Source: Macrostomum lignano (Eukaryota). Taken from it: a stretch of DNA of 32,155 nucleotides. The stretch is taken from the NCBI GenBank assembly GCA_002269645.1, contig NIVC01004889.1, positions 1 to 32,155 of the forward strand, read 5' to 3'. Each line of letters opens with the position of its first letter. Positions within the stretch are counted from its first letter, which is position 1. Made by a program: the position numbers and the translations under genes. The notes under the pieces were generated by a model, which ran no database searches, was not told where the DNA came from, and saw only the letters and a list, made by a program, of their open reading frames with translations. Positions 1,036-29,900 of this stretch are shown in pieces.

Positions 1036-1301
1036 ATGTCAGCCGGGCCACCCGCCGCCGACTCCGACATGTCGTTCGTCTTGTCTGACGCCGATCGTCG
1101 ACTCGGACTAAAAACTTCGGTGGCGTTGCAGCGCCTGGCTGAGGAAGTCGACGCAGTCAGGCGGAGCTCGTTTCGGCGCTGGCGCTTTGACCTGGCCTGC
1201 CTGTGGCGCCACCCGCCGATCACCCTGCCTCACATTGGCGTCAATCTGGCGCTGTGGGCTCTGCTGCTCGCCGCCTCCGCTTTGGCAGACCGGCCCGAGG
1301 A
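1036..1301 (+). CDS. TMEM94: TMEM94/KIAA0195-like protein, coding exon 1 (start codon uncertain: 1036 or 1069)
   Basis: LGLKTSVALQRLAEEV resembles the recalled human TMEM94 N-terminus LGLSTRKALSVLKEQL and is followed by a hydrophobic segment. Donor GTGAGA at 1302, phase 2, matches the next acceptor. Confidence 0.75.
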
Positions 1302-1313
1302 GTGAGAAGGCGC

Positions 1314-1590
1314 CTGTGTACCGCTCTATCTACCTGTCTACCGCTCTATCTACCTGTCTACCGCTCTATCTACCTGTCTACCGCTCTAACTACCCTGTCT
1401 ACCGCTCTATCTACCTATATACTGCTCTATCTACCTGTCTACCGCTCTATCTACCTATATACTGCTCTATCTACCTGTCTACCGCTCTAACTACCCTGTT
1501 TACCGCTCTATCTACCTATATACTGCTCTATCTACCTGTCTACCGCTCTATCTACCTGTCTACCGCTCTATCTACCTGTCTACCTGTCTA
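1314..1590. repeat. 20-bp minisatellite (TACCGCTCTATCTACCTGTC), left part, intron 1
   Basis: Tandem units; the same array resumes at 4016 after the LINE. Confidence 0.95.
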
Positions 1591-4015
1591 TTATTAATTT
1601 CCGGCGTGCCAACTGGGTCCTTTTCAAATTCACCCTGGAGAACTCGCTGTCTGACTTCAGCACTGACGGCAACGCTCATGGCGTCGAGAAGAATTTGCGC
1701 CGGATTATTCTCAAGGCGATGAAGACGGCCATCCCTGAAGGCCGATTCAAGCGCCAAGAAGCCTCGCCCTGCCCTGCTGTAATTCGCCACCTTCTAGCTG
1801 AACGCGACAAACTGCGCTCTGATGATGCTAGCGATCCTAGGATCCCTACACTCCAGAACCGCGTTACTGCTCTGATTGAAGAGGAACAACGTGCCCGATG
1901 GAACGATTTCTTGAATGAGCACGGGCAACAGCCTGCACCCACTCCGCATCTTTGGTCCACCATTAAACGTCTTTCCGGCCGTGTCACCTCCTCAGCTCGT
2001 AACATCATCATCCGTTTCGACGGAAGACCGACCTAGACCGACGCGGAGGCGGCTAATCGGCTTAATAAACAGTTCACGCAGCCGCGTGCTCACTGTTCGA
2101 ATCCAGCCATGCGCTTCGTCCGCCGCAAAGTTGCTGCACTCCCGCGCGAAGACCTGCTGCACTACCCTCTTGTATTTCTCCAAAGACAACCTGGTGCAGG
2201 CCATCAAACGCTCTAAGCCTTCGAAGGCTATCGGCCCTGACGGTATCTGTCCGCTAGTCATTAAACATTTCGGCCCCAAAGCCATCGACGTGCTCCTCGG
2301 CCTGTTCAACCGTTCGCTGCACTACAATGAAATCCCCGCGGTTTGGAAGAAATCGCTGATCTGCCCATTAATTAAAAGTGGCAAACCTCCGGATGACGGA
2401 GCCTCCTACCCCCCGATTTCGTTCCTCTCCCCGCTGGCTAAAATCTTTGAAAAACTCCTGCTGCCCCTGCTGACTGACCACCTTAAGCTCCCAGCTTGGC
2501 AGCACGGTTTCCGCCCAATGCACTCTACCACTACCGCATTGTGTCAGCTCGCCGAGCAGATCAGTACTGTTTTCTGCCAAGCCAAGCCCCGGCGAGAACT
2601 GGCACTGCTGCTCAGGATCTGAAGGCTGCCTTTGATTGTGTGGACCACTGTGAGCTCATCACCGACGTCTTCAACTCCGACCTGCCGAACCTCATCAAAG
2701 GCTGGCTCTGCAACTACCTTCTCGGTTGTCAAGCCCGCACAATACTCGTACTGCGCGACTGCAAGTCCGCCTGGCGCCAAGTTCGCATGGGAGTGCCCCA
2801 AGGTAGCGCGATCAACCCGCTTCTTTTCGCCTTCTACCTGAAGGACACCCCTACGCCGGATGACCCGAACTCCAGCCTTATCGGCTATGCCGATGACCTT
2901 ACAGCGGCTGCCTCTTCCGCGTCCATCTCGCGCATCCAAGAGCAACTCAACGCCTACTTAACGCGCTTGGCGCCGTTCCTCCATGCCCGCAAGCTCAAGG
3001 TCTCGGCAGCAAAATGCACCACGACGCTCTTCACTCCGGACCAACGGGAGTACGCCAAGGCCCTCGAGGTCTACTTCGACGGTTCCAGACTACCCCAGGC
3101 TCTCTTTCCTAAAATCCTGGGCGTGATCTTTGATCCGAAGATGACGTTCAGCCGTCACGTCAAGGCCACTATCGAGAAGGCCCACAAACATAACAGCGTC
3201 CTCCGCTGCTTGGCGGGTAGCAGTTGGGGCAGCTGCAAGGAGCTGCTGCTCAACACTTACAAGGCCATTTCGCGCAGCATCCTCAACTACGCTGCTCCTG
3301 TTTGGGGACCTGTCATCTCGTCCACCTCCTGGAACGGGCTCCAGTCGGTCCAAAACGCGGCCATTCGGTGCATCACCGGCTGCACCGTCAATACCTCTGT
3401 TGCCGACCTTCACTGCGAGACCCGGATGCTCCCGGTCCAGCAGCACAACAGGCTCCTGTCTCTCCAGTTCCTCCTGGCCTCTCGCCGTCCTGAGCACCCC
3501 TGCTACCACCTTTCCGCCTGCCCGGCTCCTCGCCGGCGCATGAAGCCGTCCATTTTTACCGCACCATTCTTTGACGATTCCTGGCAGCCAGTCGAAGCCC
3601 CGGCGGTCCTCGACGACGCGGCAGCCTGGGACAGGGCGAGGCGAGCTCAACACTCGCTCATCGTGCTCAATCACATCGACGGCCTACCTCCTAACCGCGT
3701 CGTCGGCCTTCGCCCCGACGTCTGCGATTCCGAGCGTTCTTTGCCGCGTCGGACCCGTTCTCTGCTCGCCCAGCTGCGCTCTGGCTTCAGTCCTATGCTT
3801 CGTAGTTACCAGCACCGGTTGAATCCTGAGACGCCTCCAAGCTGTCCTGAGTGCGACGCGGCCACGCATGATTGCCTGCATCTTTTTAATTGCCCGGCTC
3901 ACCCCACCGAGTTGGTGCCCTCTGACCTGTGGCGCAACCCTGTTGAAATCGCTGAGTTCCTGTCGCTGCCTGTCCAGCGCGACCCTGGCGAGGGTTAAAA
4001 ACAACAACAACAACA
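1591..4015 (+). mobile_element. 5'-truncated non-LTR retrotransposon (LINE): post-endonuclease linker, RT, C-terminal Cys/His knuckle, (AAC)n tail; no RNase H seen; clade not assigned
   Basis: NFRRANW linker start, SKAIGPDG, WKKSLICPLIK, QHGFRPMHST, DLKAAFDCVDH, GVPQGS, YADDL, LGVIFDPKMTF and CPECDAATHDCLHLFNC. TAA at 3996-3998 is followed directly by AAC repeats. Possible TSD ACCTGTCTA (1582-1590 / 4016-4024), not diagnostic inside the repeat. Confidence 0.93.
1595..3998 (+). pseudogene. Disrupted LINE ORF2 (reverse transcriptase)
   Basis: In-frame TAG at 2034-2036 plus frameshifts near 2170 and 2580-2620 split the RT over ORFs 1695..2036, 1915..2622 and 2496..3998. Confidence 0.88.
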
Positions 4016-4808
4016 ACCTGTCTACCGCTCTATCTACATATCTACCACTCTATCTACCTGTCTACCGCTCTATCTACATATCTACCGCTCTATCTACCTG
4101 TCTACCGCTCTATCTACATATCTACCGCTCTATCTACCTGTCTACCGCTCTATCTACCTGTCTACTGCTCTATCTACCTGTTTATCGCTCTGTCTACCTG
4201 TCTACTGCTCTATCTACCTGTTTATCGCTCTGTCTACCTGTCTACTGCTCTATCTACCTGTTTATCGCTCTATCTACCTGTCTACTGCTCTATCTACCTG
4301 TCTACCGCTCTATCTACCTGTCTACTGCTCTATCTACCTGTTTATCGCTCTATCTACCTGTCTACTGCTCTATCTACCTGTTTATCGCTCTATCTACCTG
4401 TCTACTGCTCTATCTACCTGTTTATCGCTCTATCTACCTGTTTATCGCTCTATCTACCTGTCTACTGCTCTATCTACCTGTTTATCGCTCTATCTACCTG
4501 TCTACCGCTCTATCTACCTGTCTACCGCTCTAATCACCCTGTCTACCGCTCTATCTACCTGTCTACCGCTCTATCTACCTGTTTATCGCTCTATCTACCT
4601 GTCTACCGCTCTATCTACCTGTTTATCGCTCTATCTACCTGTCTACCGCTCTAACCACCCTGTCTACCGCTCTATCTACCTGTCTACCGCTCTATCTACC
4701 TATATACTGCTCCATCTACCTCTGTACCGCTCTACCGCTCTATCTACCTGTCTACTGCTCTATCTACCTGTTTATCGCTCTATCTACCTGTCTACCGTTC
4801 TATCTACC
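4016..4808. repeat. 20-bp minisatellite, right part, intron 1
   Basis: Same TACCGCTCTATCTACCTGTC unit with TTTATCG/TACTG variants. Confidence 0.95.
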
Positions 4809-4906
4809 AAAAAATGAACAAAACAATTTCATGTCTGCCACTCTACCGCTGTGCACTTTGCAGTTTTTCTTAACCAAAACTTTATAAACCTGCCGCACTG
4901 TTCCAG

Positions 4907-5052
4907 TTTCCTACCAGTGGTCACCATGGCCCTTGTCCTGACAGCCATGCTGCTGCTCATTGGAGCCAATGTGGCCGCTGCGGTCCTTATCGACTGGCTG
5001 TCGCACAATGGAGTTGATAAGAAAATTCAGAACCTCTGCGCTGATTTAGCGG
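4907..5052 (+). CDS. TMEM94: TMEM94-like exon 2
   Basis: Acceptor TTCCAG (4901-4906), donor GTAAGA at 5053. Phase 2 in and phase 1 out fit the neighbours. Encodes the TM helix FLPVVTMALVLTAMLLLIGANVAAAVL. Confidence 0.8.
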
Positions 5053-5104
5053 GTAAGAATTTGGCGAAGACGACACGAACATTCGAGCACTGAATGATCG
5101 GATA

Positions 5105-5812
5105 GGATTAGAATCACTTCCTGTGGGATCTGAAGGATTAGAATCACTCCTAAGGGATCTGAGGGGATTAGAATCACTCCTGAGGGATCTGAGGGGATTT
5201 GAATCACTCCTGAGGGATCTGAGGGGATTAGAATCACTCCTGAGGGATCTGAGGCGATTATAATCACTCCTGAGGGATCTGAGGGGATTAGAATCACTTC
5301 TAGGGGATCTGAGAGATTAGAATCACTCCTGAGTGATCTGGGGGATTAGAATCACTCCTTAGTGATGTGAGGGGTTTAGAATCACTCATGGGGATCTGAG
5401 GGGATTAGAATCACTCATGGGGGATCTGAGGGGATTAGAATCACTCCTTAGTGATGTGAGGGGTTTAGAATCAGTCCTGGGGGATCTGAGGGGATTAGAA
5501 TCAGTCCTGAGGGATTTGAGGAGATTAGAATCACTCCTGAGGGATTTGGGGGGATTAGAATCACTCTTGAGGGGATTAGAATCACTCCTGAGGAGATTAG
5601 AATCACTCCTGAGGGATTTGGGGGATTAGAATCACTCTTGAGAGGATTAGAATCACTCTTGAGGTGATTAGAATCACTCTTGAGGGGATTAGAATCACTC
5701 TTGAGGGGATTAGAATCACTCCTGAGGGATCTGAGGGGATTAGAATCACTCCTGGGGGCGATTAGAATCACTCCTGAGGGGTTAGAATCACTCCTGAGGG
5801 GGTTAGAATCAC
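5105..5812. repeat. 30-bp / 21-bp minisatellite (GGGGATTAGAATCACTCCTGAGGGATCTGA), intron 2
   Basis: Tandem units read directly. Confidence 0.95.
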
Positions 5813-5857
5813 TCATACCGCTAAGAAATACATTGACTCGTATTGATTGCACTGAAG

Positions 5858-6372
5858 AGTACAGCCGCACCGTGAACTGGCCAGTCGAGTCAGCCTACCC
5901 GGACCTGAGCGCGCCCTCCGTGTCCACCATCCACTGCCACTGGACCCTCCGAGACGGGCACCTAATCAACCTACCTGCTATGCTATTGGTTCGCGACGAC
6001 ATTATCTACGTTCGTCCCGGCAGCGCTTTCAACGTGCACTGCTGCGAGTTGCCCCAGCAACAACAGTCGGAACAGTTGGCTAGATCGTTCGAACCGGATG
6101 ATCGGTACATGCCAGTGCTGCCTGATCCAGCCAGACGGTCGCTCAGCAGGCCCGTGTCTCACCGGGTTCTGCCGCCGCTGCGCTGCCGCGTGAAGCTGAC
6201 TCCGGCTGTGGATTTTGTTCGAGATTTTCTTAATCTGCACATTCGAGGCCGATCGGACTTGGACGCGCTGTTCGCCAGAGGCTGTCGGGCGTGTCTGGTC
6301 TGCGTGGGAGTCGCTTTTGCCGTGTGTTTGGTCGCCGCGCTGGCCAAACGGCACGTTATTGGGGAGGATTCG
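5858..6372 (+). CDS. TMEM94: TMEM94-like exon 3
   Basis: VNWPVESAYPDLSAPSVSTIHCHWTLRDGHLINLPAMLLVRDDIIYVRPG matches recalled human IQWPSAMYPDLHMPFAPSWSLHWAYRDGHLVNLPVSLLVEGDIIALRPG. AG at 5856-5857, donor GTAAGC at 6373. Confidence 0.88.
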
Positions 6373-6464
6373 GTAAGCTGTGCTGTAAGAGGGAGAGATA
6401 AAGATTTCGAATTTTATGACCTAAGCGTTTATAGTTCTTTAATTTTTAGTATATAGGATATGTG

Positions 6465-6960
6465 TACTTTAGTGCATCTAAAAGTACTTTAGGGGATTTT
6501 TACTATAGTGTAAAAGTACTCTTAGGCGGTGCGTACTTTAGATGAAAAGCACTTTTAAGGGACGTGTACTTTACTGCAAAAGTACTTTTAGGTTTCGTAC
6601 TTTTCTGCAAAAGTACTTTCAGGTTTTTTACTTTACTGTAAAAGTACTTTTATGGGTTTTGTACTTTACTGTAAAAGTACTTTTACGGCATGTGTACATT
6701 CGTTCAAAAATATATTCGTGATATTTGTGCTTTATATTGTGTAAAAGCGTACTTTAATGGACATCCACTTATGATAGGTGTACTTAGTAGTACAGATGCA
6801 CTCAAGTGTACATGTACTTCTGTGTAGCTGCACTTTATTCTAGATGCACTACTGTAGTCTGGATGTACTTTTGACTTTGTCTCTTTAATTTAACTTCGAT
6901 GTACTCTAGTTGGTGTACTTCAGGGTGAAGGTAAATGTGCTTTACACCAGGGTACTCCCA
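6465..6960. repeat. Degenerate ~32-bp repeat built on the palindrome AAAAGTACTTTT, intron 3
   Basis: AAAAGTACTTT/GTACTT recurs at ~30-33-bp spacing and decays 3'. Confidence 0.75.
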
Positions 6961-7016
6961 GTTGAAATGACGCAGACAAATTATTAAAGCTCTGCACTTT
7001 TACTCTGCACTTTTAG

Positions 7017-7391
7017 GTGTCAGCAGCCTACGCGCTGGCCTTCCCCTGCCTGGCCACCCTCCCCATCCTGCTGCTGTCCTGCCCGCCAATGTGGCACGCC
7101 CTGAACCTGTGGGAGCTGGCCAAAGCTCTGGTGCACGTGCACCGAACTTCTCTGGCTAGCGACGAGCTGCTTCGCCAGCCAGACAGGCCGCCATCGATGG
7201 ACAGCCTGACGGAGTCCATCGGCTCCCTGTCGGACCTGGACACCTGCGACACCACCGCTGCTGCCTCAATCGTTGCTGGCTGGCGAGACGCCTTGGCGAA
7301 GTTGATGTACCTGCTGACTGACAATGCGGAGGTGGACTGGAAGCTGGTGCACTCGTTTGGCACAATGTCCAGGCTGTGCTGCGCTGATAAG
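7017..7391 (+). CDS. TMEM94: TMEM94-like exon 4
   Basis: Acceptor TTTTAG, donor GTGCGA at 7392, phase 0. LVHSFGTMSRLCCADK matches recalled LLHSLGSVTVLCCVDK. Confidence 0.88.
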
Positions 7392-7400
7392 GTGCGACTT

Positions 7401-7769
7401 TGACTGCTCATAGTGCCAATTTGACTGATCATAATACCAATTTGACTGCTCATAGTGCCAATTTGACTGATCATAATACCAATTTGACTGCTCATAGTGC
7501 CAATTTGACTGATCATAATACCAATTTGACTGCTCATAGTGCCAATTTGACTGCTCATAATACCAATTTGACTGATCATACTTCTAATTTAACTACTCAT
7601 AGTGCCAATCTGACTGTTCATAGTGCCAATCTGACTGCTCATAGTGACAATTTGACTGCTCATAGTGACAATTTGACTGCTCATAGTGACAATCTGACTG
7701 CTCATAGTGACAATCTGACTGCTCATAGTGCCAATTTGACTGCTCATAGTGCCAATCTGACTGCTCATA
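7401..7769. repeat. 21-bp minisatellite (TGACTGCTCATAGTGCCAATT), intron 4
   Basis: Tandem units fill almost the whole intron. Confidence 0.95.
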
Positions 7770-7788
7770 CCGCTTCGCCTGTCTTCAG

Positions 7789-8256
7789 GAGGGCATCCTC
7801 AGCCTGCCCATCCCGCTGCCAGACAAAGTCTGTTTCTTACGCCGCAAGCACCGTCACCGCAGCACGCCCGCCCAGCGCAAGAAGTCGGACATGAGCTTGC
7901 AGACCTCCGAGGCCAACAGCGCCCTGCTGGACACGGAGGCGCATATTCACGTCCTGGACGTTTCGCATGACCCGAAGATTGCCTACCGACTGGACTTTGA
8001 CGATCCGCATTGGCGTCGGTTTTTGAAATCATTGAAGCCGCTGGGTCTGGCCATTCTGTTGAATAACTGCCACCCGTCTGCCAGGCCCAGCTATGACGCT
8101 TTCGCTCATCACGTGACCGCCGTCACGCTGCCGGATGATCCGCGCGCTTGCGTTAATAAGCGGCGTTGCCTGTGCGACTTGGCGAGGCTGATCGGCTTCA
8201 AGGATGCGGCTCGGGACCCCTTCAGCCTGCAGTTCACGCTGGGCACCTATCAGCAG
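7789..8256 (+). CDS. TMEM94: TMEM94-like exon 5
   Basis: Acceptor CTTCAG. EGILSLPIPLPDKVCFL, FDDPHWRRFLKSLKPLGLAILLN and LCDLARLIGF match TMEM94 motifs. Donor GT at 8257. Confidence 0.9.
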
Positions 8257-8304
8257 GTGGCTGCGGCATAGCGATGCTCTGTTTGAGTTTGCGATTTGGG
8301 TGCA

Positions 8305-8841
8305 GTGATTGATTGATTGATTGATTGATTTATTCCATTGATTGATTGATCGATTGATTGATTGAACTTGATTTTTGGATTGATTGATTGATTCTATTGA
8401 TTAATTTATTTATTCCATTGATTGATTGATTGATTGATTCTATTGATTAATTGGACTCGATTTATTGGATTGATTAATTGATTTATTTATTTATTAATTG
8501 ATTCAATTTATTGATTGATTGATTTTTTTATTCCATTAATTGATTGATTGATTAATTGAATTCGATTTATTGGATTGATTGAGTGATTGATTGATTCCAT
8601 TAATTGATTGATTGATTGATTGATTGATTCTATTGATTAATTGGATTCGATTTATTGGATTAATTGATTGATTCTATTGATTAATTGGATTCGATTTATT
8701 GGATTAATTGATTGATTCTATTGATTAATTGGATTCGATTTATTGGATTAATTGATTGATTCTATTGATTAATTGGATTCGATTTATTGGATTAATTGAT
8801 TGATTGATTGATTCTATTGATTAATTGGATTCGATTTATTG

Positions 8842-8873
<32 letters not shown>

Positions 8874-9365
8874 CTATTGATTAATTGGATTCGATTGATT
8901 GATTGATTGATTCTATTGATTAATTGGATTCGATTGATTGATTGATTGATTGAATTCGATTTATTGGATTGATTGATTGATTGATTGATTGATTCTATTG
9001 ATTAATTGGATTCGATTGATTGATTGATTGATTCTATTGATTAATTGGATTCCACTGATTGATTGATTTATTTATTTATTCCATTGATTGATTGAATAAT
9101 TGAATTTGATTTATTGATTGATTAATTGATTGATTGATTGATTGATTGATTAATTGATTCAATTTATTGATTGATTGATGAATTCAATGGATTGATTGAT
9201 CGAATGATTGGTTGATTCGATTGACTGATTGCTTTGATTGACTCATTGACTCATTACATTGATTCCATTGGTGAACTAAAAAATTAGATACAATTGATAA
9301 ATCGTAAATTAAGTTTACATTTTATGATTCAATTGATTGATAATTTAGTTCAGTTGATTGCTTTA
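8305..9365. repeat. (ATTG)n microsatellite with higher-order GATTCTATTGATTAATTGGATTCGATTTATTG units, intron 5
   Basis: Read directly. Confidence 0.95.
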
Positions 9366-9443
9366 TTGATTTTACGCTACTTGGGTATCTGTGCCGACAC
9401 ACACCCGAGCGTATTAATCTAGTATGCCAATTGCACATTTCAG

Positions 9444-9650
9444 GCCAGCAAGGAGGACCAGGGCAAGGACCAGTTCTTGAGGCTGCTCAGCGCGCTCAGA
9501 CAGAAGGCACCTGTCGGGCACACCTTCGGCTGCGCTGTGCAGCAGCGGCATCTGGGCGGGCAGTACTTTGTGCAGGGCTCGGCTGATGTGCTCGTGTCAG
9601 AGCTGTGTGCGGACTATTGGAATGGCAACTCTGTGTCTGCGCTCACTGAA
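9444..9650 (+). CDS. TMEM94: TMEM94-like exon 6
   Basis: Acceptor TTTCAG. QGSADVLVSELCADYWNG matches recalled QGTADVVLEACTDFWDG. Donor GTACAT at 9651, phase 0. Confidence 0.85.
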
Positions 9651-9710
9651 GTACATTGGGGTGTGCTCTGGTGGATTGAGTAGGGTTACCAGCATGTCAA
9701 ATTTGTTCTT

Positions 9711-10925
9711 GTAGGTTTGGTAGGGTTTATGGTAGGTTTGGTAGGGTTTATGGTAGGTTTGGTAGGGTTTATGGTAGGTTTTATGTTTCAATCAAGGCTT
9801 AGTAGGGTTTATGGTAGGTTTGGTAGTGTTTATGGTCGGTTTTATGTTTCCATCAAGGCTTCGTAGGGTTTATAGTAGGTTTGGTAGGGTTTATGGTAGG
9901 TTTTGTAGGGGTTATGGTAGGTTTTGTAGGGTTTATAGTAGGTTTGGTAGGTTTTATGTTTCAATCAAGGGTTGGTAGGGTTTATGGTAGGTTTAGTAGG
10001 GTTTCTGGTAGGTTTGGTAGGGTTTATGGTAGGTTTGGTAGGGTTTATGGTAGGTTTAGTAGGGTTTATGGTAGGTTTGGTAGGGTAGGGTTTATGATAG
10101 GGTTTATAGTAATTCTGGTAGGTTTGGTAGGGTTTCTGGTAGGTTTGGTAGGGTTTATAGTAGGTTTAGTAGGGTTTCTGGTAGGTTTGGTAGGGTTTAT
10201 GGTAGGTTTGGTAGGGTTTATGGTAGGTTTGGTAGGGTAGGGTTTATGGTAGGTTTAGTAGGGTTTATGGTAGGTTTGGTAGGGTTTCTGGTAGGTTTGG
10301 TAGGGTTTATGGTAGGTTTGGTAGGGTAGGGTTTTATGGTAGGGTTTGTAGTAATTCTGGTAGGGTTTATGGTAGGTTTGGTAGGGTTTCTGGTAGGTTT
10401 GGTAGGGTTTATGGTAGGGTTTGTAGTAATTCTGGTAGGGTTTCTGGTAGGTTTGGTAGGGTTTCTGGTAGGTTTGGTAGGGTTTATGGTAGGTTTGGTA
10501 GGGTTTATGGTAGGTTTGGTAGGGTTTATGGTAGGTTTGGTAGGGTAGGGTTTATGGTAGGTTTGGTAGGGTAGGGTTTATAGTAGGGTTTGTAGTAATT
10601 CTGGTAGGGTTTCTGGTAGGTTTGGTAGGGTTTATGGTAGGGTTTGTAGTAATTCTGGTAGGGTTTCTGGTAGGTTTGGTAGGGTTTCTGGTAGGTTTGG
10701 TAGGGTTTATGGTAGGTTTAGTAGGGTTTCTGGTAGGTTTGGTAGGGTTTCTGGTAGGTTTGGTAGGGTTTCTGGTAGGTTTGGTAGGGTTTATGGTAGG
10801 TTTGGTAGGGTTTATGGTAGGTTTAGTAGGGTTTATGGTAGGTTTGGTAGGGTTTATGGTAGGTTTGGTAGGGTTTTTGGTAGGTTTATTAGGGTTCATG
10901 GTAGGTTTGGTAGGTTTCCTAGGGC
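9711..10925. repeat. 21-bp G/T-rich minisatellite (GGTAGGTTTGGTAGGGTTTAT), intron 6
   Basis: Tandem units read directly. Confidence 0.95.
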
Positions 10926-11020
10926 TTTGTAGGAAGTCGTTCGAGCTCAACTGAACTCAAACTCAACCCAGGAGTCTCAAATGCAGCCAACTGGCTCTCC
11001 GCTCCCCGCCCTTTACCCAG

Positions 11021-11566
11021 CTGGACCGCAAGCGCCTGCTCAACTTCTACAGCCGGCACAGCTACTCAAGCTATTGCGACGCATTCGCTTACACGCCCGT
11101 GCTCAACAAGATGTCGCCGGCAGGCGGCAGCGGCGATCGATGCGTCGAATTGCCGCCGTTCCGGCTGAGCTCAGAGGAGGCTGAGGATCCGCCCACGCCA
11201 ATGCTGCTCAACACGCCTCTGTCAAGGACGTTCAGCGCTGAGACAACTTTGCATCGATCGTCCAATTTGTCCCTGACAGACGTAGACACCTGTCTGAGCA
11301 TGCAGAGCGGCCAGGTGTTTCTAGGAATGGTGGCCTCCCAGTTCCAGGCCAACTCCGATGTTGTCAGGCTCATCGACCAGCTGGAGCTGGGCTGCATCCG
11401 GTTCGTGTACTTTAGCGAGGAGAACGAACTGCGTAGCAGAGGATTCGCTGAACGTCTGGGACTCGAATCCGGCTGGAACTGTCACATCTCGCTGAGGAGC
11501 GACTCGTGCGGCGGCAGCAGGGCTACAGTGACCGCGGACAGGGAGCCGGTGCCCGCAGGCCTGACC
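11021..11566 (+). CDS. TMEM94: TMEM94-like exon 7 (last exon found; the C-terminal half of the gene is not in this window)
   Basis: LDRKRLLNFYSR, YCDAFAY and GQVFLGMVASQFQANSDVVRLIDQLELGCIRFVYFSEENELRSRGFAERLGLESGWNCHISL match the TMEM94 signature CIRFVYFS...GWNCHISL. Donor GTGAGT at 11567. Exons 1-7 join in frame (2523 nt, 841 codons). Confidence 0.92.
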
Positions 11567-11634
11567 GTGAGTCTTGGGTTCCATTGGCTGAGGGTGTCTG
11601 GTCGGATGCGTGCGATTGGGTCAGTGGGGTTGGT

Positions 11635-22264: not shown

Positions 22265-22474
22265 TTATGTTCCTGAAAAACTCTTGGTTTTAGTTAGTTT
22301 CGTAGGTGTGGGTTTTAACAATTCCTTTCTTATTTTATCAGCTTGTAACTGCCTTAATTTTGCTAGTTCTAGTTCGTAATTATCTTCAGCTTTTTTAACT
22401 TTTTCTGATTGTTTTTTTATTAAATTATTATTATTATCGTGCTTTGCACGCGAACATGTTGTTCGATTACCCAT
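22265..22474 (-). CDS. Small basic coiled-coil protein, 69 aa, possible N-myristoylation (MGNRTTCS)
   Basis: AAAA-ATG start; fills the gap between penton and protease exactly. Confidence 0.55.
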   Translation of the reverse strand: MGNRTTCSRAKHDNNNNLIKKQSEKVKKAEDNYELELAKLRQLQADKIRKELLKPTPTKLTKTKSFSGT

Positions 22475-22484
22475 TTTTACAGTA

Positions 22485-23269
22485 CTAAACCTGTTTTATA
22501 CGTAAAATTATTGTTATTGACTGCCCACCAAAACTTATTAATCTATCGCTTTCATCTACAATCCTAATATAAATTGATTGAACATTATATTGATTTAATG
22601 GGTAATATATTGGGGTTTGGGTGCAACAATCATTTTCTCTCCAATTGGAACAGCAAGAAATGGGATTGAATAAATAATTCCACGTTGAACCAAAACTCCG
22701 TTATCGTCTGTTATATAACCACCGTTTGAAATGTCGGTTGTTATATTAATTGTATTTACTCCACCCTCTATATTTCCAACTGTATCACCGGTGCTTGATG
22801 TGGTAACTATTCGGGAATTAAATCCAAGTATGGTTCTGAGTGAATTTGCAATTGTGAAATCAACCTGATATCCGGATCCTAGTGATAGTGTGAATCTGCC
22901 AGACGGTAAATCAACACCTATAACAATTGCTCCTGCTACCCAATCACCATTAGTTGTTAATTCTCCTTCTATATAAGCATTCAAATCAGTATAGCTATAC
23001 GCTCCTGGGTTAACGCTAAATGTTGTCCAATTGGCTCCGGAATCTTTAGAATATCTAAATTGATTATTTGTTGCATTAATTAATTGAGGCATGTTGAAAA
23101 CCGAAAATAGTATTAAACCTATTTGATAACTTAGGCTTTGATCAAGTTGTAATGGATCGCGCAATTGAATCCGTTGCTCGCTGGTTGTCATTATAAACTG
23201 TAATGTTGTACTAAATTTTGAATTAGTTCGATCTACCAATTGTTTTATAGTATTTAAATTTGTAGTCAT
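22485..23269 (-). CDS. Minor capsid protein (penton, single jelly-roll), ~261 aa; frameshift near 22612-22618
   Basis: DPLQLD...YQIGL...FN...INATNNQFRY, PGAYSYTDLNAYI, DFTIANSLRTILGF, VN.INITTDI..GY. One added base gives IYYPLNQYNVQSIYIRIVDESDRLISFGGQSITIILRIKQV-stop. Confidence 0.85.
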
Positions 23270-23271
23270 TT

Positions 23272-24121
23272 TTATAGTGGGAAATTAATCGGACGAAGTC
23301 CGCGTTCCGATCGTATTCGTCTACGCGTGCTATGCTCCTCTTCTTCATTATCTTCTTTTATCAAATTTGTTAAAATTCTATGTTTCCTTTCTAACCTCGG
23401 ATTGATATAAATATGTTTGTATTGGCTATCATCCCAAATTTTTTTACACATACTTTTAAATGGTTTTGCATCCAATCCGGGATTAAATCTAGCGTGATAT
23501 TTTGTAATCATAGTTATCTAAATCAAACATTACACAACAGCTAGCATTCTTTTTTATAATCGATTCTAATTCTCTAAAGGATTGAGTAAGATAAAAAGCT
23601 CCAATTCCATCTCCTCTACCACTAACAAAAATTTCCTTTTGCAATTCTTGATCACCGTCATTAATACAATCATCAAAAATAATTAGTGTTTTATCATGTT
23701 TTGGAATTTGATCATAGGCTAATCGGGTTGATACTCTAACAGTTGGGGCTCGATCGGACGAAGTCCGCGACCCTTCGGGGCGATCGGTGATGTTTTCTGG
23801 CTGTTGTGCCATTGTTTTACATAAATCCTCAATGTCTGCTAGATTAAATCGCGGTTCGTCATCATCCTCATATTGCTCATATGCTCTTAACATTCTAAAC
23901 AAGACATCTTTTTTTAATTTGTTTTTTAATCCATGTTTAAGAAATTCATAATATTTTATTCTAGGTTTATTAGTATAAATTATTAAATTATTATAGTCTA
24001 ACATTCCATCTGTTGTTAATAAATCGTAAACAAAGTGTGTTTTTCCTTTACCTGATCCTCCGATTACTAAACAAAGAAAAGGATCATTTGGAAATATTTT
24101 ATTGTGTTTTGCCTTTACCAT
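23272..24121 (-). CDS. FtsK/HerA-type (A32-like) genome packaging ATPase; frameshift near 23512-23517
   Basis: Walker A LVIGGSGKGKT, Walker B LIIFDD, GRG..IGAFYLTQSF, then KKNAS. C-terminus continues in ORF 23272..23511. Confidence 0.92.
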
Positions 24122-24186
24122 TTTTAAAGAAATAATTTAAATAGGCGCGACGGTCGGAGACGGACACCGACGTGCTTTGCACTGCA

Positions 24187-25659
24187 CTAAAGTGGTGCGT
24201 CCCGAACAATCGTGCCATCAGCTTTAGCAATTGACATATATTCCTCTAGAAACAATACGTGGGCGTCAAGTGCCTGATTACCGGTTTTATTAATCTCTAA
24301 CATATAATTAAGTCCAATATTGGCTACGTTTTCTTTCTGTGCCGTTAGATCATAAACAACCACTGGATGAATGTTTAGAAACTCTGTGGGTGTGTACTGA
24401 GGGACGGCATACGCTTCATTTTTGGCATAATCTTGATAATATTTTATAAAATCATTAACATTATTATTTGCTATATTTAAATTTAGGGGGTCTTTAACCG
24501 GATAATATTGATCATCAACCTGCAGGCGGATATTCTGAACATTAAACTCGTTAATAGCTGCAGCCGCATTGTCTGTTGCGGTGGCTGCTTGTTCTGCTAT
24601 GGCACCGGATTGAAGCCAATATAAATCCCCATTTGCTCTTTTACTCCTTCTATTTGTTATCTTAAACCAAACAAAAATATATCTCACCCGACGTTTTGAT
24701 GTCAGTATTTGCCACTGGAATGAATCCTGGTTATTATTAATGGTTCGCATAAAATGTCGACGATTCAAATAAAATATTTCCTGATCATGCGTTAACTGAT
24801 TATCGATGTGTTTTAAAAGTGGGGCTGTTACCTCAATAGTTGGTACGACTAATTGAATTGAATCTATACGAACTGCTATATCGGTTGAAATTGAGGTTCC
24901 ATAAAGTATCCTAGGCTGATATCCACCAGATATTTGCAACTGTATCCCAAATTTTAATCCTTTCCATACCCGATTTGGTGAGAAAAACCCAAATAGTGGA
25001 AAGATTGAAAAGTCCTGCTCATATGCTGTTGCTGTGGTTAAAACCGCGACTGGGAATTTATTCTGACGATCTATAAAACCAGTATTAATATCTTTTGTAT
25101 TAGTCATAGTGGTTACAACTGGAACTATGTTTGTATTAAGGTAAACAATTAGCGCTGCAGTATCTGCACCGGCTGCGTTTTGTACATTAGGGAAAACTAC
25201 TGCTTGACCGTTACCTTTATCCGGCATCCACCCAACATTATCACCAACTTGTTTTGATAAATAAGTATAATTTAAATGTTTCAAAACTCCATTAATCTCT
25301 GCGGGGTTTGATGATGTCTCAACCTCAGCACCATTAACAGTTAGTTGAGCTTGGGAAAAACATTTATAAAACCAATCATTTTCTATTATTATTCCGGATC
25401 GATCTGCGATATCTCCGGCTGCAAGAGCAGTTCCATCATTTCTAGTATACAACCATCTAACGCGGAAAAACGCATTTTTCATATCCAATATAGTGTTGGT
25501 TGCGCCGATGTCAAAAGTTACCGTTCCAGTAGTAAAGTTATTTGAATTATCACTTGTTGGTAGGGTATAATTTAAATCTCTTGCTCTGACCTCATTAATA
25601 TACTGTCGGTGCTTTTTGAAATGAAATTTATCACTCCACATAGTTTTTGTTTCAGCCAT
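24187..25659 (-). CDS. Major capsid protein (double jelly-roll), 490 aa, intact
   Basis: VTFDI...LDMKNAFFRV, NDWFYKCFSQAQLTVNG.EVE..NP, RRVRYIFVWF, NIRLQVDDQYYP, FLNIHPVVVYDLTAQKE follow the Polinton MCP pattern. Size and position next to the ATPase fit. Confidence 0.87.
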   Translation of the reverse strand: MAETKTMWSDKFHFKKHRQYINEVRARDLNYTLPTSDNSNNFTTGTVTFDIGATNTILDMKNAFFRVRWLYTRNDGTALAAGDIADRSGIIIENDWFYKCFSQAQLTVNGAEVETSSNPAEINGVLKHLNYTYLSKQVGDNVGWMPDKGNGQAVVFPNVQNAAGADTAALIVYLNTNIVPVVTTMTNTKDINTGFIDRQNKFPVAVLTTATAYEQDFSIFPLFGFFSPNRVWKGLKFGIQLQISGGYQPRILYGTSISTDIAVRIDSIQLVVPTIEVTAPLLKHIDNQLTHDQEIFYLNRRHFMRTINNNQDSFQWQILTSKRRVRYIFVWFKITNRRSKRANGDLYWLQSGAIAEQAATATDNAAAAINEFNVQNIRLQVDDQYYPVKDPLNLNIANNNVNDFIKYYQDYAKNEAYAVPQYTPTEFLNIHPVVVYDLTAQKENVANIGLNYMLEINKTGNQALDAHVLFLEEYMSIAKADGTIVRDAPL

Positions 25660-25693
25660 TTTTTTAAGTTAAAAAAGTTTTTTATGTTAAAAA

Positions 25694-26358
25694 ATGAGTC
25701 AATTTATGGACGTTGATGGAGAGTTAGCGATTTATAAAGAGAAGCAAAGATATTCTGATTTTGTTAGAAATTTACAAAAAAGAAAGTTAGGAATACAATT
25801 AGCTGGCGAAAGATTTGCTGCTCCTTTTGTTAATCCTATTACTGGGAAAATTAGTGAACTAGAAAAAACAGATAAAGATCTTCTGGAAAAAATTGCTAAA
25901 AATACGAGCCAAAAGAGGATGAAATTTTGGATGAGCCGCCTGCTTATGATGTTGATCAAGCAATATTTAGAGTTGCAGAATTAGACGTGAGAGATTAGGG
26001 GTGGAGTTGAACAATATCCAAGAGATGCGCCACTAGTATTGCTGCGACAGATTTAGGTGGTGGTAATTATCGAATTGGTAGTTGATAAAATCGAAATGAA
26101 CTATATAGAGAATTGGGCGGAGCATTTAATATTATTACGAACCCTAGGGTAAAATTTAACCCTGATTTATATACTAGGGATGAATTAATAAGTGCTAGAA
26201 TTTTTTATGATGAGTTAGGAGGAGCTGTTAAAAATACCAGCTTGTATAAAAGGATTGTTAATTCTATAAATAACAAACCAGCTGTTGGTGATGGATTTAA
26301 AACACCGCGAAAACTTGTTTTAGCTGCTGCGAAAGCTGCTGGACATACTGGAGTTTAA
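25694..26358 (+). CDS. Conserved Maverick protein (PZ/PW-like, function unknown), ~220 aa, broken by about 3-4 frameshifts
   Basis: FVNPITGKI, NYRIG, YTRDEL...Y.RIV, and C-terminal GDG...LV..AAKAAGHTGV resemble recalled Maverick motifs (F.PIT..L; YT..DL..Y; G.G...L.AS..AGNT). Exact junctions are uncertain. Confidence 0.5.
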
Positions 26359-26385
26359 TTAATTGTTAAATTTATTTTTTATAAA

Positions 26386-26955
26386 ATGGATGAAACAAAA
26401 ATTTGTACTACGTGTAAAATTGAGAAACCGATGACTAAAGAATTTTTTTGTTGGAGAAATGACACAAAAAAATTTAAAAATCTTTGTCGATCTTGTGAGA
26501 AAGTTAAATGTACTATGTGGAGAATAAACAATAAAGATAAATGTAATAAATATGCAAAAAATAAATATCGCACTGATGAAAATTTCAAAAATATTAGTCT
26601 AATTAGAGCTAAAATAACTTGGGCATTGAGAACTTTTCATGACAAACATTATATCTCATATCTTGGTTGCACAAAAGAATTCTTTTTTGATTGGTTAAAT
26701 TTCACAAGAAATTATTATGTTCCAAAAAATTATACTGGAAAGTTAGATATTGATCATTTCATTCCCGCTTCTTCATTTAATTACAAAGACGATGATCAGA
26801 TTAAAAAGTCTGAAAATTGGAGAAATAAAAGATACTTAACTAGCGTAGATAATAACTATAAAAAAGTTAAACAACCAACAATTGAAGAATTTGCGAAACA
26901 ATTGGTGCTATCATGTATTTTTAAGGCTATTAAAAATGAACCAAATAGTGTTTGA
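26386..26955 (+). CDS. Free-standing HNH (beta-beta-alpha-Me) endonuclease with N-terminal C4 zinc finger, 189 aa, intact
   Basis: CTTC...CRSC; YLGCT..F..WL; DIDHFIPASSF...NWRN...L..VDN..K, the pattern of giant-virus/phage HNH endonucleases (IDH.IP...F......NL.PL...DN..K). Confidence 0.85.
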   Translation: MDETKICTTCKIEKPMTKEFFCWRNDTKKFKNLCRSCEKVKCTMWRINNKDKCNKYAKNKYRTDENFKNISLIRAKITWALRTFHDKHYISYLGCTKEFFFDWLNFTRNYYVPKNYTGKLDIDHFIPASSFNYKDDDQIKKSENWRNKRYLTSVDNNYKKVKQPTIEEFAKQLVLSCIFKAIKNEPNSV

Positions 26956-27061
26956 AGGAGGATTTTTAGACTTACAAAAAGGATTAACGAGCTTACCACC
27001 AATCTTTACTACTGGTAAATATACAGGGGAACTACACCTACCATCAATGAACTTCACAGGT
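26936..27061 (+). CDS. PLA2-integrase fusion gene, exon 1 (42 codons, MNQIVFEGGFLDL...ELHLPSMNFTG)
   Basis: TAAAA-ATG start. ELHLP..NFTG is the first half of the parvovirus-type PLA2 Ca-binding loop, completed by PGT at 27365. Confidence 0.88.
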
Positions 27062-27364
27062 TAACCCGTGGCCTGAGTGAGGAAGGCAATGTCCTTGCTA
27101 GTCACTATTTGTGGCGACATCTCCAAATTGCGTGAAACCCGTCATACAGCTTCAAGTACCACTTCAAGTGAGAAATCTTTTGAAGGAACAGAGGTAACTC
27201 CTCTTCCCAAAGGTAAAAAGCTTGAAGACACGGTGGCAATGCGCAGCCAAGCTCCTAAGTATTTTAAATATAAGGAGAAGGTTCAGAGAGCAGACGGAGA
27301 TGGGCGGTAATTATCGCCGCTTAAGGTGTGCTCCAGCCTCATTCGAAAGATTGAGGGTAAACAG
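27062..27364 (+). ncRNA. Group I self-splicing intron, subgroup IC1-like, 303 nt, no internal ORF of note
   Basis: Exon-terminal U27061 pairs with G27071 in P1 (CAGGU/GCCUG); intron ends in G27364. P3 CAUCUCC 27118-24/GGAGAUG 27296-302. P element AAAUUGCGUGAAA 27125-37; Q AAUGCGCAGC 27238-47; R GUUCAGAGAGCAGA 27281-94; S AAGGUGUGCUCC 27323-34. P7 is fully paired with G27288-C27333. P5abc has GAAA and GUAA tetraloops; P8; P9 with GAAA loop. GC ~47% by hand count. Confidence 0.95.
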
Positions 27365-28532
27365 CCGGGGACTAGACTGGATTTAAGATTAAATCCTGAC
27401 AATACTCCAAAATCTGATTCAATTCCAATAAATGGGATTGATTGGTTAGCATACTATCACGACTTAGCATATAGAGATGCTGACAAGAACCCGCCCGAGG
27501 AAGCATTAAGATTAAAACATGAAGCCGATCAAAAAATGATTCAAGGATTAGATAACTTGCAGGGATTATCGGTAGGTCAAAAATTAACTAGGTGGATGGT
27601 TAAAAAGATCTTGCAGTCTAAAGTTAAATTTGGTTTGGGAATTAATTATAATCAACATGGAAATAATTGTGTTGAGTGTTTGTTATTAAGTGGTGGGTTA
27701 AGTTCTGATGAGGCAAAGATTCTTCATAAAGAATATCGAAAACCTAAATTTTATAGAAAAATCATGAACTTCAAAAAGAATGAAATTTGGTATGCTGATT
27801 TAATGTCGATGCCGAACGAAAGAGGATATAAATATATCTTAACCATATTAGATGGTTTTACTCGATACGCGTGGGCTGTTCCTTTAAAATCCAAAAAGGA
27901 GAGGAGGTTGCTGCTGCTTTTAGAAGTCTTGGAGAAAAAAGCGAACGTTTGTGTGTTGACGAAGGAAAAGAATTTTACAATCCTCATATGTATAAATTGT
28001 ATCATTTTGAAAAAGGACAAGAAAGGAAAAAGACGCGAATGGGGAGTATATTAATAAAATTTATTCTATTTATGGAGAGAGTAAAAACGCATTAATAGAA
28101 AGATTTAATAGAACTTTAGGTAAGAAATTATGGTTTCAGTTTAGTCTTAATGGTAACCAAAAATGGGTAAAAATATTACCAGACGTAGTGAAAGATTATA
28201 ACAATTCATATCATTCGGCGATAAAGATGACTCCTCAACAAGCTTATAACAATCCTGAAAATGTTAGGGTTACTTTTGGAAAATTTGAAAAAAAAAAAAA
28301 AATTTTAAGTTGGTGATTCTGTTTATATCTATAAATGGAAAGATAAGTTTGAAAAGGGAAGAAAAGGATATTGGAAGATAAGTGAGAAATTTACTATCAG
28401 TAAAGTTTTAAATACCAATCCTACAACCTATATAATTGCTGATAAGGACGGTGAAGAAATATTGGGTTCTTTTTATGAGAACAGATATTATCTGCAACTA
28501 AGTTCGATCAGTTACTTAAGACAACATGGTAG
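27365..28532 (+). CDS. PLA2-integrase fusion gene, exon 2: parvovirus-type phospholipase A2, linker, rve (DDE) integrase, SH3-like C-terminal domain; frameshifts near 27895, 28025, 28288-28308 and ~28480
   Basis: PGTRLDLRL...PINGIDWLAYYHDLAY...EAD (HD dyad). Then LHKEYRK, WYADL (D), YILTILDGFTRYAWAVPLKSK, CVDEGKEFYN (D), LIERFNRTL (E), YNNSYHSAIKMTP, VGDSV...KFEKG...GSFYE. No chromodomain seen; the 3' end is approximate. Confidence 0.9.
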
Positions 28533-28564
28533 TAAATTTTTTATAACAAACAAAAACAATATTA

Positions 28565-28735
28565 TTACATAATTGTTACTAATATTATTATTGACATTTG
28601 TTCAACTGTTATCAAACTTAAATTTTCATTAAGTTCATTAATCGGCACATTTCCGATGTAGGAATAGTTTACCTTCATTTTTTTATATATATTTTTCACA
28701 ATAAATGTCGTTTCTGTTATAGAATAATAGTTCAT
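28565..28735 (-). CDS. Possible small ORF, 56 aa (MNYYSITETTF...)
   Basis: A-run before ATG and fills an otherwise empty gap; no motif. Confidence 0.35.
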   Translation of the reverse strand: MNYYSITETTFIVKNIYKKMKVNYSYIGNVPINELNENLSLITVEQMSIIILVTIM

Positions 28736-28751
28736 TTTTTAAATATTTTTT

Positions 28752-29066
28752 TCACATAAAAATTTCACTTTCATTCTCTGAATCACTGGTTTCATATGAA
28801 CTATTTGTTGATTCGGAATCTGTTGATCTAACCTCCCAATCATCCGAATTTAAATAATCTCCAAGTTGAAATATTAACTCACCCTCTTGTTCTAAATCAT
28901 ACATCTCATCTAGCTCTAATGGATAAAGTTTTAGGTCGTGCTTGTCGTCATATTTTAAATAAACTTCATCAATTATTCCATTCAAAATATGTTGTTTTAT
29001 TATCTCTGCATTTTTAGCAACAGTCTCAAAAGTATCACTAACAGAAAAGGTGTAAACTCGGTTCAT
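28752..29066 (-). CDS. Acidic hypothetical protein, 104 aa
   Basis: TATAAAAA-ATG 18 bp inside the right TIR; Ser/Glu/Asp-rich tail. Confidence 0.6.
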   Translation of the reverse strand: MNRVYTFSVSDTFETVAKNAEIIKQHILNGIIDEVYLKYDDKHDLKLYPLELDEMYDLEQEGELIFQLGDYLNSDDWEVRSTDSESTNSSYETSDSENESEIFM

Positions 29067-29083
29067 TTTTTATAACAGAAAAA

Positions 29084-29404
29084 GACCCTTCGCGCCTGCG
29101 GCGCGTGCGACGGGTTCTAGAAAGTTTGTGTGTGTTGGAGAGAGTTGGAAGCGTTGACGATACAAAATACCCAGCAAACCAAAGCGAGCGACGAGGGCGT
29201 GTTCTCACCATTCAAAAAGAATTAATCGTTGTAAGTGTGAAATGGCCTGTTTGACCGAAATGAAGCGAGGATGAGCGAAGCGAGTTGAGCGAAGTGAAGA
29301 CGAGCGAAAATGAAGGGAAACAGGCCATTTCACACTGATAAAGGGTTAAATTGTTTGCAATGGTGAGAATGGTTTGCTGGGTATTTTGTATGGTATATAC
29401 TACT
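29084..29404 (-). repeat. Right terminal inverted repeat (321 bp)
   Basis: Ends GTATATACTACT at 29404; reverse complement of the left TIR. Confidence 0.96.
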
Positions 29405-29559
29405 TTTGCCAATGTAACGGAGCTTTTGTCTATGGTAGCAAGGCTGGCACAGCGGCATTTAATTTGGTCCAACAAGCATTAACTTGGTCCATAGATTCAT
29501 TTGCAACTGCTGTGGTGGAGCAAGATTAGCCTAAGAATTGTGGACCATATGCTGGGCTT

Positions 29560-29900
29560 GTGATCGAAGCACTGGACAGAGGTGAACACCCAAAGGACAT
29601 TGCAAGGCTCCTGAATGTAAAAGAAAATATGGTTTACAACACCCGTCAGCGCGTTGAAACCACTGGCGGCAAAGATCGCCTGCCAAAGGGGTGAAAATCA
29701 CCAAGACAAGTTGCGAGAGCCTCTGGTCCAACTGCTACTCGATGCAGTTGAGACGAACCTTTGTTGACGTTGCAGAAAATGCAACAGAAGTTGAAGGATC
29801 TCCGTTGCATTGTTAAACCTTTCTTGGATTAAATTCAATGCGGAAAAAGCTACGTATATTTAGCAAAAGATTTCCGACAGCTGACCAAAATTCTGACAAG
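29560..29900 (+). pseudogene. Degenerate Tc1/IS630-like transposase 5' fragment (HTH region)
   Basis: VIEALDRGEHPKDIARLLNVKENMVYNTRQRVETTG (HTH-like), then in shifted frames KLREPLVQLLLDAVETN / LTLQKMQQKL / RKKLRI. No DDE core or TIRs found. Confidence 0.55.

Follow-up and report, generated by a model that had tools for sequence, protein, structure and literature searches.

Optional group I introns at a Gly-Pro site of the Maverick PLA2-integrase gene in the genome of the flatworm Macrostomum lignano

Group I introns matching RF00028 have been reported from integrated Polinton-like viruses of three protist groups, Paulinella, Desmodesmus, and Rhodomonas (PMC12220804). HNH domains occur in the polymerases of nematode Polintons, in a report whose accessible text mentions no introns (PMC10748475), and PLA2-like genes have already been described in animal Mavericks (PMC8502044). 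According to a review, nuclear group I introns are exclusive to the rRNA genes of microorganisms, and the IC1 scaffold is the more complex one (PMC3679873). Collaborative homing is known from the cyanophage S-PM2 psbA intron and the free-standing nuclease F-CphI (PMC3984707; PMC6083498) and is also described in phages in a further report (PMC11296320). Known homing nucleases recognize sites of ~20 bp or more, which avoids toxicity (PMC3943268). The restriction enzymes EcoO109I and AvaII have the sites RGGNCCY and GGWCC, respectively (PMC7337904), and Eco47II has the site GGNCC (PMC10305163). Our search, which covered mainly the main texts of open-access articles, found no report of such introns from animal Mavericks or from the nuclear DNA of flatworms, nor of one combined with an Eco47II-like ORF. 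Supplementary Tables S11-S12 of PMC12220804 list intron-bearing elements and could bear on the novelty.

The window, the whole 32,155-nt stretch of Macrostomum lignano DNA analyzed here, contains a Maverick element of 17,458 bp with 321-nt terminal inverted repeats and AG...CT ends (Table 1). Its hallmark genes are pPolB (PF03175), the packaging ATPase (PF04665), and the rve integrase (PF00665, whose score is below the cut-off on the window's integrase fragment). The capsid and protease candidates at 24187-25659, 22595-23269, and 21853-22263 had no Pfam or PDB match and show weak likeness to an ORF of L127, a Polinton-type contig from IMG/VR. Most start codons of the Maverick genes (window 12449-29066) have the context AAAATG or TAAAATG and follow leaders that are very rich in A+T. 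The interrupted gene encodes a PLA2-integrase fusion, since PF08398 and PF00665 lie in one frame in an intron-less allele; both domains are present in many environmental relatives. Within the PLA2 calcium-loop motif, the intron separates the Gly codon from the Pro codon. A sequence-only reading of this DNA had called the host a PLA2 gene. It was correct about the calcium loop, and the gene turns out to be the fusion, frameshifted in the window copy from about 27890 on, in the integrase part; most copies have a frame of ~400 aa.

Table 1. Coordinates of the mapped features in the window.
Feature	Position	Strand	Remark
Last mapped exon of TMEM94-like host gene	11012..11575	+	371 nt before left repeat
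Left terminal inverted repeat	11947..12267		321 nt, starts AGTAGT
Mapped part of the element	15027..17567	+
A32-like packaging ATPase (PF04665)	23489..24121	-
Free-standing HNH/Endo VII-like ORF	26386..26955	+	directly upstream of exon 1; weak match
Exon 1 of PLA2-integrase gene	26936..27061	+	ends in Gly codon, whose U pairs with G27071
P1	27057..27075	+	exon 27057-27061 with guide 27071-27075
ORF-less IC1-like group I intron, terminal G	27062..27364	+	Rfam, empty alleles
P10 guide	27065-27070	+	pairs first bases of exon 2
P2.1	27097..27117	+	nuclease ORF of relatives just 5' of P2.1 3' strand and P3
P3 (27118-24 with 27296-302), P4, P5, P6, P6a, GAAA-receptor-like loop	27118..27302	+
P5abc domain	27146..27229	+	69-75 of 84 nt common to all three Maverick intron types
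P7 with G27288-C27333 guanosine-binding pair, P8, J8/7 between strands	27286..27334	+
P9.0, P9 with GAAA loop, terminal nucleotide	27335..27364	+
Exon 2: PLA2-like (PF08398) fused to rve integrase	27365..28485	+
Right terminal inverted repeat	29084..29404		100% complementary to left

The insert in this gene is an ORF-less IC1-like group I intron with a complete core and optional presence, and its identity as a real group I intron is virtually certain. The Rfam model RF00028 matches window 27052-27355 (+) with 65.7 bits (gathering score 50; E 9.9e-15), and the alignment covers the whole model (1-253). The intron is 303 nt long with 46.5% G+C between flanks of 28% and 32%, and a stop codon opens it in the frame of exon 1. 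Both ends are fixed by three intron-less family-1 alleles of the same genome (L070, L089, and L093), in which the F/Y-A-G-P-G-T motif is uninterrupted and the insert precisely absent. A genome-wide pattern for such empty alleles matched exactly these three loci, and its control matched none. The predicted fold of the intron has an MFE z-score of -2.57, and none of 100 shuffled sequences was equally stable. The IC1 subgroup is marked by P5abc with an A-rich bulge and a GAAA loop, a receptor in P6, and P2 with P2.1, all of which are present in the window intron. The receptor (CCUAAG...UAAGG) is one base off the canonical form in the window and canonical (UAUGG) in some other copies (L080, L081, L095, and L097). 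The pairs of the window P7 are G-C, G-C, A-U, G-C, C-G, and A-U, and one of the two P9.0 pairs is A.A.

The sequence-only reading had anticipated much of this. Its boundaries (27062-27364) are borne out by the natural intron-less alleles, its group I assignment by the covariance model, and its IC1-like label by the subgroup features; the helices that it had drawn (U27061.G27071, a 7-bp P3, P4, P5abc, L5b GAAA, L5c GUAA, P6a, P8, and P9 GAAA) are all present. Its rule of an exon U and a terminal G applies to the window, which has G27364, and the U.G pair is found in all 54 distinct copies, but the G is the minority state in the family. The reading did not foresee the large intron family, its A-ending majority, the two further intron types at this site, the nuclease with its probable GGNCC target, or the published introns of protist Polinton-like viruses.

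Several features of the intron are worth recording. A 75-codon open stretch at window 27083-27307 is in the same frame as the nuclease ORFs of relatives that run through the core. Many copies (L021, L023, L049, L055, and others) have a 30-nt hairpin-like insert in P5abc at the equivalent of window 27211, which makes the intron 333 nt long. Similar short palindromic inserts are found elsewhere in the elements, in family-2 introns, and near the start of exon 1 (L079, L081, and L083). They look like a small mobile hairpin.

The genome contains 212 candidates for the window intron, and the 40 that were scored are 96-100% identical to it. For a comparison of copies, 98 fetched loci gave 81 extractions and 54 distinct introns (two lacked the 5' part; the rest were of other types or empty). 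In all 54, the U.G in P1, the P2.1 core, P6, and the P7 G-C pair (G27288-C27333) are invariant. Of these, 36 end in A and 18 in G. The P9.0 pairs are retained as A-U in 48 and G-C in 53, and this conservation pins the terminal position. Genome-wide, 84 of 113 window-type 3' ends have A and 29 have G (controls 0), counted as pattern matches in one assembly and not as copy numbers; a first, looser pattern was discarded (695 matches vs. 977 in its control). All 84 A-ending matches read ...AAACTA ahead of the Pro codon. The window form, with G kept and one P9.0 pair lost, accounts for 10 of the 29 G-ending matches. A-ending copies retain P9.0, the core, and open exon frames.

The Gly|Pro site is occupied by more than the window type. 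Further matches to RF00028 in the genome number 28 (72-91 bits), and all ten that we fetched are IC1 introns with a canonical P7 and a G before exon 2 in a second Maverick family; this family-2 type has 29 matches in the genome. Families 1 and 2 are ~60% alike. The site is occupied in both, and both have empty alleles, in family 2 many of them with 463-aa frames. Another type at the same site, with 24 genome matches and a compensated P1, has a core that we take to be IE-like from its motifs. Rfam matched one such intron (L096, 41.6 bits, E 2e-8) and gave no match for another (L065). In L065-L068, L075, L083-L086, and L096, the 3' flank of the IE-like intron has no in-frame Pro-Gly-Thr, and exon 2 may begin at a shifted site there. 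In total, the survey of Maverick PLA2 genes proposed in the sequence-only reading finds the same insertion site filled in 166 pattern matches by three intron types. These types are mosaics or close kin, because 69-75 of 84 nt of P5abc are shared among them vs. 46-54 of 84 for four viral comparators.

The site is also used outside this genome. Two protein clusters start with an in-frame intron 3' end and have an intron-less cluster mate. In the contig L127, an IE-like intron of 302 nt interrupts the gene at this Gly|Pro junction too, and a GIY-YIG gene lies upstream. The junction is an insertion hot spot. The many-source Rfam scan missed 11 of 12 intron-bearing loci and the L127 intron, which was found by the short-stretch scan; 19 other IMG/VR loci were covered by this intron-insensitive many-source scan only, and L147-L148 lay outside it. 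A number of family-2 exon-1 matches end one residue early with short frames (at C2167:29923, C3908, C620:188468, C1101:171889, C2508, C870:201167, and others), possibly reflecting a further insert at or beside the same site.

The intron and its exons show signs of constraint. Among the 54 introns, paired positions differ by 0.024 on average and unpaired ones by 0.076, compared with 0.32-0.34 at synonymous exon sites. Pairing is kept in 22 of 36 variant pair types (13.3 expected), five of them changed on both sides, and broken in 14. Variation is seen at 39 of the 161 paired columns and at 51 of the 142 remaining intron columns (p 0.03), a modest excess in the unpaired part. The selection on structure proposed in the sequence-only reading agrees with the smaller difference at paired sites and the kept pairings. 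In intron-bearing copies, exon 1 has a pN/pS of 0.29 (53 of 54 sequences usable) and the PLA2 portion of exon 2 one of 0.07 (51 of 54); restricting the comparison to A-ending copies gives the same values. Both exons of the intron-bearing copies are under purifying selection. This pattern is as for a spliced gene, and a recent sweep of the intron into diverged alleles could look similar. No co-conversion gradient was found on the 3' side of the insertion site. The last two codons of exon 1 have zero diversity, and five other bins are likewise zero or uninformative.

The window intron has no nuclease ORF inside, but its relatives do. Of 29 family-2 introns, 28 have such an ORF, arranged in the order exon 1, ORF, core, with the 5' splice site and the ORF position taken from coordinates only. 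It starts 78 nt past exon 1 in 22, has an open frame of 216-250 aa in 16, and reads into the core. A free-standing gene for the same Eco47II-like protein (58-66% identity) directly precedes exon 1 in a minority of family-1 copies (11 of the 93 loci classified, as judged by motif); the others have HNH/Endo VII-like ORFs. Three nuclease classes (HNH-like, Eco47II-like, and GIY-YIG) occupy this upstream slot. The HNH-like ORF is not tied to the intron, because all three empty family-1 alleles (L070, L089, and L093) have it. Five of nine environmental nuclease homologues continue into the intron core, with a match exceeding every one of 200 shuffles, and one of them reads through the P7 variant of the window intron. 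The window intron is thus most plausibly a nuclease-bearing intron in its ORF-less form.

The nuclease itself is likely a small PD-(D/E)XK enzyme of the Eco47II/EcoO109I kind. It matches PF09553 with E 3.9e-5 and a score of 23.8, below the cut-off of 25.9, and is Eco47II-like in the atlas (0.94). The predicted model has a pLDDT of 89 and is nearest to EcoO109I by TM-score (0.61-0.63); AvaII and DdmD also match at E < 0.001, with DdmD at the top by E-value. Residues E49, D65, E76, and K78 are invariant in 10 of 10 nuclease sequences. A profile search of PDB sequences with the nuclease gave no match, no relative of it was found on viral contigs, and no methyltransferase was seen among the ORFs of the window element.

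The empty insertion site reads GGNCC in five of five alleles, necessarily, because a Gly-Pro codon pair always spells GGNCC. The remainder of the element avoids this word. The 17.4-kb window element has none, where 16.1 are expected by the Markov model (none of 300 simulations was as low) or 10.8 by the maximal-order model, and GGNCC has the lowest observed/expected ratio of 256 words. Gly-Pro is absent from the 3,987 aa of the element proteins (7.2 expected), and codon resampling gave zero GGNCC in 7 of 500 trials. The 98 fetched loci, which are overlapping homologues and not independent, hold seven GGNCC, five at empty insertion sites and two outside the element-matching part; two more are found in decayed family-2 copies. 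The controls are not depleted (103 vs. 88 expected in 22 IMG/VR integrase loci, 30 vs. 26 in the host flanks), and 3 of the 22 IMG/VR loci have no GGNCC. The element (11947-29404) is also short of CCNGG (0.35) and CTNAG (0.56). Gly-Pro is scarce in distant integrases as well (7 vs. 29.6 expected), which are not an independent control. Some related PLA2-integrases (P0128, P0133, P0134, P0138, and P0170) have Gly-Ala for Gly-Pro, and the forced GGNCC is gone; it is possible that these are escape variants. A 5-bp cutter would be toxic in the nucleus; an enzyme of this kind would need to work apart from host chromatin or be confined to the late phase of replication.

A search with a pattern for the P7 variant of the window found 4 viral and 24 metagenome loci, most of them group I-like and a few of them chance matches. 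Eight of eight tested flanking ORFs of the capsid kind belong to giant-virus major capsid genes, and several giant-virus introns with this P7 have G before the next exon. The giant-virus relatives suggested by the sequence-only reading are therefore real in that the same P7 variant lies beside eight such capsid genes. Its reading of the three P7 changes as selection in this lineage does not hold, as the same P7 is found in the capsid introns and is invariant or close to it among the Maverick copies. The variant appears to have been inherited and not evolved in Mavericks, because giant-virus capsid-gene introns carry it, and giant viruses are probably the nearest identified source. An adaptation of P7 to the terminal A was considered and rejected, since the variant is also present in G-ending copies and in G-ending giant-virus introns. 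Runs of two to four group I introns within 3 kb are seen on three giant-virus-like contigs (L101, L114, and L119). Two G+C-rich, phage-like loci (L116 and L126) have the same P7 variant, and L116 adjoins a phage capsid gene.

Taken together, a mobile family of giant-virus-derived group I introns that parasitizes Mavericks by homing is a likely reading of these data. Exons 1 and 2 would be joined by ordinary two-step group I splicing, with the 5' site defined by P1 and its U.G, the 3' site by P9.0 and P10, and guanosine bound in P7. Splicing may also work with the terminal A, perhaps less well. We consider it quite likely that the intron is spliced during the life cycle of the element. The intron would spread by homing among co-occurring Mavericks, driven by the small PD-(D/E)XK nuclease that is intron-encoded in family 2 and encoded beside the gene in some family-1 copies. 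This nuclease is predicted to cut a site with the core GGNCC, and it seems moderately likely that it drives the homing. With GGNCC lost elsewhere in the element and split by the intron, a short restriction-type site would become unique in a viral genome. Giant viruses are the most likely origin of this intron type, whether directly or via Polinton-like viruses, and the type may have reached the flatworm chromosomes as cargo of the integrating element. More tentatively, this could be restriction-enzyme-based homing at an unavoidable Gly-Pro GGNCC, with introns occupying the site, swapping modules there, and defending it, and with mostly A-ending ribozymes splicing protein-coding RNA in bilaterian cells.

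The setting of the locus bears on whether the element belongs to the worm at all. The TMEM94-like gene to its left has a flanking exon that is 100% identical to Macrostomum lignano proteins and ends 371 nt from the left repeat. Residues 1-838 of 1374 of TMEM94 map to 1054-11575, and the later exons are absent from the contig. No target-site duplication was found at the window locus, whose left and right flanks differ, and a DNA run shows different sequences ahead of the right flank. The locus may be recombinant or mis-joined for these reasons. The claim that the intron is sense to the host pre-mRNA stands for the upstream TMEM94 exons, which are on the + strand, but is weakened by the later exons being off the contig and by the missing duplication. 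The right flank (29405-29800) is a high-copy repeat unlike the left flank, presumably Tc1/mariner-like, and a non-LTR retrotransposon with a reverse transcriptase (PF00078) lies inside a TMEM94 intron at window 1700-4000. An element from a protist, alga, or virus that was sequenced with the worm and mis-assembled into host contigs would fit the possibly chimeric locus and the close relatives on environmental contigs. It is nevertheless most improbable, as the exon beside the left end is the worm's own, element matches sit inside contigs up to 986 kb, contigs pass from the terminal repeat into several different flanks, and 20 of 20 runs holding the stretch, from six studies, carry one organism label. 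The Maverick integration in the worm genome is well supported, and the claim of an intron in a protein gene of an animal-embedded Maverick agrees with the inverted repeats, the pPolB, ATPase, and integrase genes, and the neighboring TMEM94 exon.

If the intron is real and the element resident, it may still be inert in the flatworm: spliced in an earlier host or helper-virus factory, and present now as passively amplified fossils whose omega-A copies are dead, while the handful of empty alleles, or translation from a start codon within the gene, supply the integrase. The contigs are all unspliced; the joint 27061-27365 is absent from those of four of four runs, and one contig, from a run whose RNA origin is a guess, covers 26940-28109 and retains the intron. 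Among the 20 runs holding the stretch, none is listed as RNA, a status that is itself a guess. The missing joint is not evidence against splicing, because contigs drop rare forms and a DNA run missed the joint despite the empty alleles. Omega-A in 84 of 113 matches and the Met at 27536, which lies ahead of the whole integrase domain, also suit an inert intron, as do the existing empty alleles. Against it, omega-A copies keep P9.0, the core, open exon frames, and an equally low pN/pS, the corallimorpharian mitochondrial ND5-717 intron without omega-G yields ligated exons in vivo in the available account (PMC6545197), and intron-bearing elements seem to have been active recently, given their identical terminal repeats and many near-identical copies. 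We find it quite unlikely that the intron is inert in the flatworm. Splicing could also be real and the nuclease a weapon of competition or defence, or an enzyme with a long site, with GGNCC avoidance otherwise caused and the intron merely sheltering the one site that the element cannot recode. Other palindromes (CCNGG and CTNAG) are depleted too, three nuclease classes share the upstream slot, and intron nucleases can serve interference and competition between viruses (PMC11620839, in its accessible part). Yet the site, the specificities of the enzyme family, and the complete absence of GGNCC agree three ways, and an intron at one site across divergent families is what homing predicts. We regard this explanation as unlikely; it overlaps the preferred reading of homing, and the nuclease can serve both functions.

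If homing at GGNCC and splicing are both true, two limits would be broken, namely that nuclear group I introns reside only in microbial rRNA genes and that homing nucleases need long sites. A tractable laboratory animal would then be available for asking if animal cells permit splicing by group I ribozymes and for what reason these ribozymes are otherwise missing from animals. The natural G- and A-ending forms of one intron would allow a direct comparison of the second splicing step. Homing presupposes that two elements come together, and introns of the giant-virus type must have had a donor; the introns would therefore be indirect evidence for viral replication of animal Mavericks and for gene exchange between them and large DNA viruses. 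The PLA2-integrase genes of intron-bearing elements would also be mis-annotated as broken.

Among known systems, Coxiella Cbu.L1917 is another group I intron without a terminal G, and like it and the corallimorpharian ND5-717, the Maverick intron shows a natural loss of omega-G with an intact core. Unlike both, it has G and A forms in one genome, with A dominant. Among the introns in capsid and polymerase genes of giant viruses (Nucleocytoviricota), eight loci beside a major capsid gene have the same P7/J8/7 variant, some with a free-standing HNH gene adjoining; the Maverick introns differ from them in host gene and site, in a P5abc only 46-54 of 84 nt alike, and in being integrated in an animal. 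I-Ssp6803I is a PD-(D/E)XK homing endonuclease tied to a group I intron, and the Maverick nuclease resembles this type in its predicted fold and intron association. Its predicted PD-(D/E)XK fold is also that of Eco47II, EcoO109I, and AvaII, and the empty site matches their core sequence. Described homing enzymes have long sites (PMC3943268), unlike the putative nuclease with a GGNCC core. As with S-PM2 psbA and F-CphI, an ORF-less intron here adjoins a nuclease gene, in the window an upstream ORF that is weakly Endo VII/HNH-like. In contrast to S-PM2, one Maverick nuclease is both intron-internal and free-standing in the same genome, and the targets are predicted.

The rDNA introns Tetrahymena Tth.L1925 and Didymium Dir.S956-1 offer parallels in the IC1 core with P5abc, the IE-like type, and the optional presence with or without a nuclease, as far as the available text of PMC3679873 describes them. 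The Maverick introns differ from these in lying in a protein gene on animal chromosomes, with an altered P7 and mostly a terminal A. The closest likeness is with the Polinton-like viruses of PMC12220804, where a group I intron of 300-380 nt also interrupts a protein gene of an integrated Polinton-type element. In the accessible text, those cases have protist hosts only, the Rhodomonas intron is in a short gene upstream of the capsid gene, and no nuclease is identified inside the introns, whereas in Macrostomum the host is an animal, the gene is the PLA2-integrase, three intron types occur, and a nuclease lies inside or beside. Group I introns in protist Polinton-like viruses are already known, and what sets the Macrostomum case apart is the animal host, the PLA2-integrase site, the three intron types, and the nuclease.
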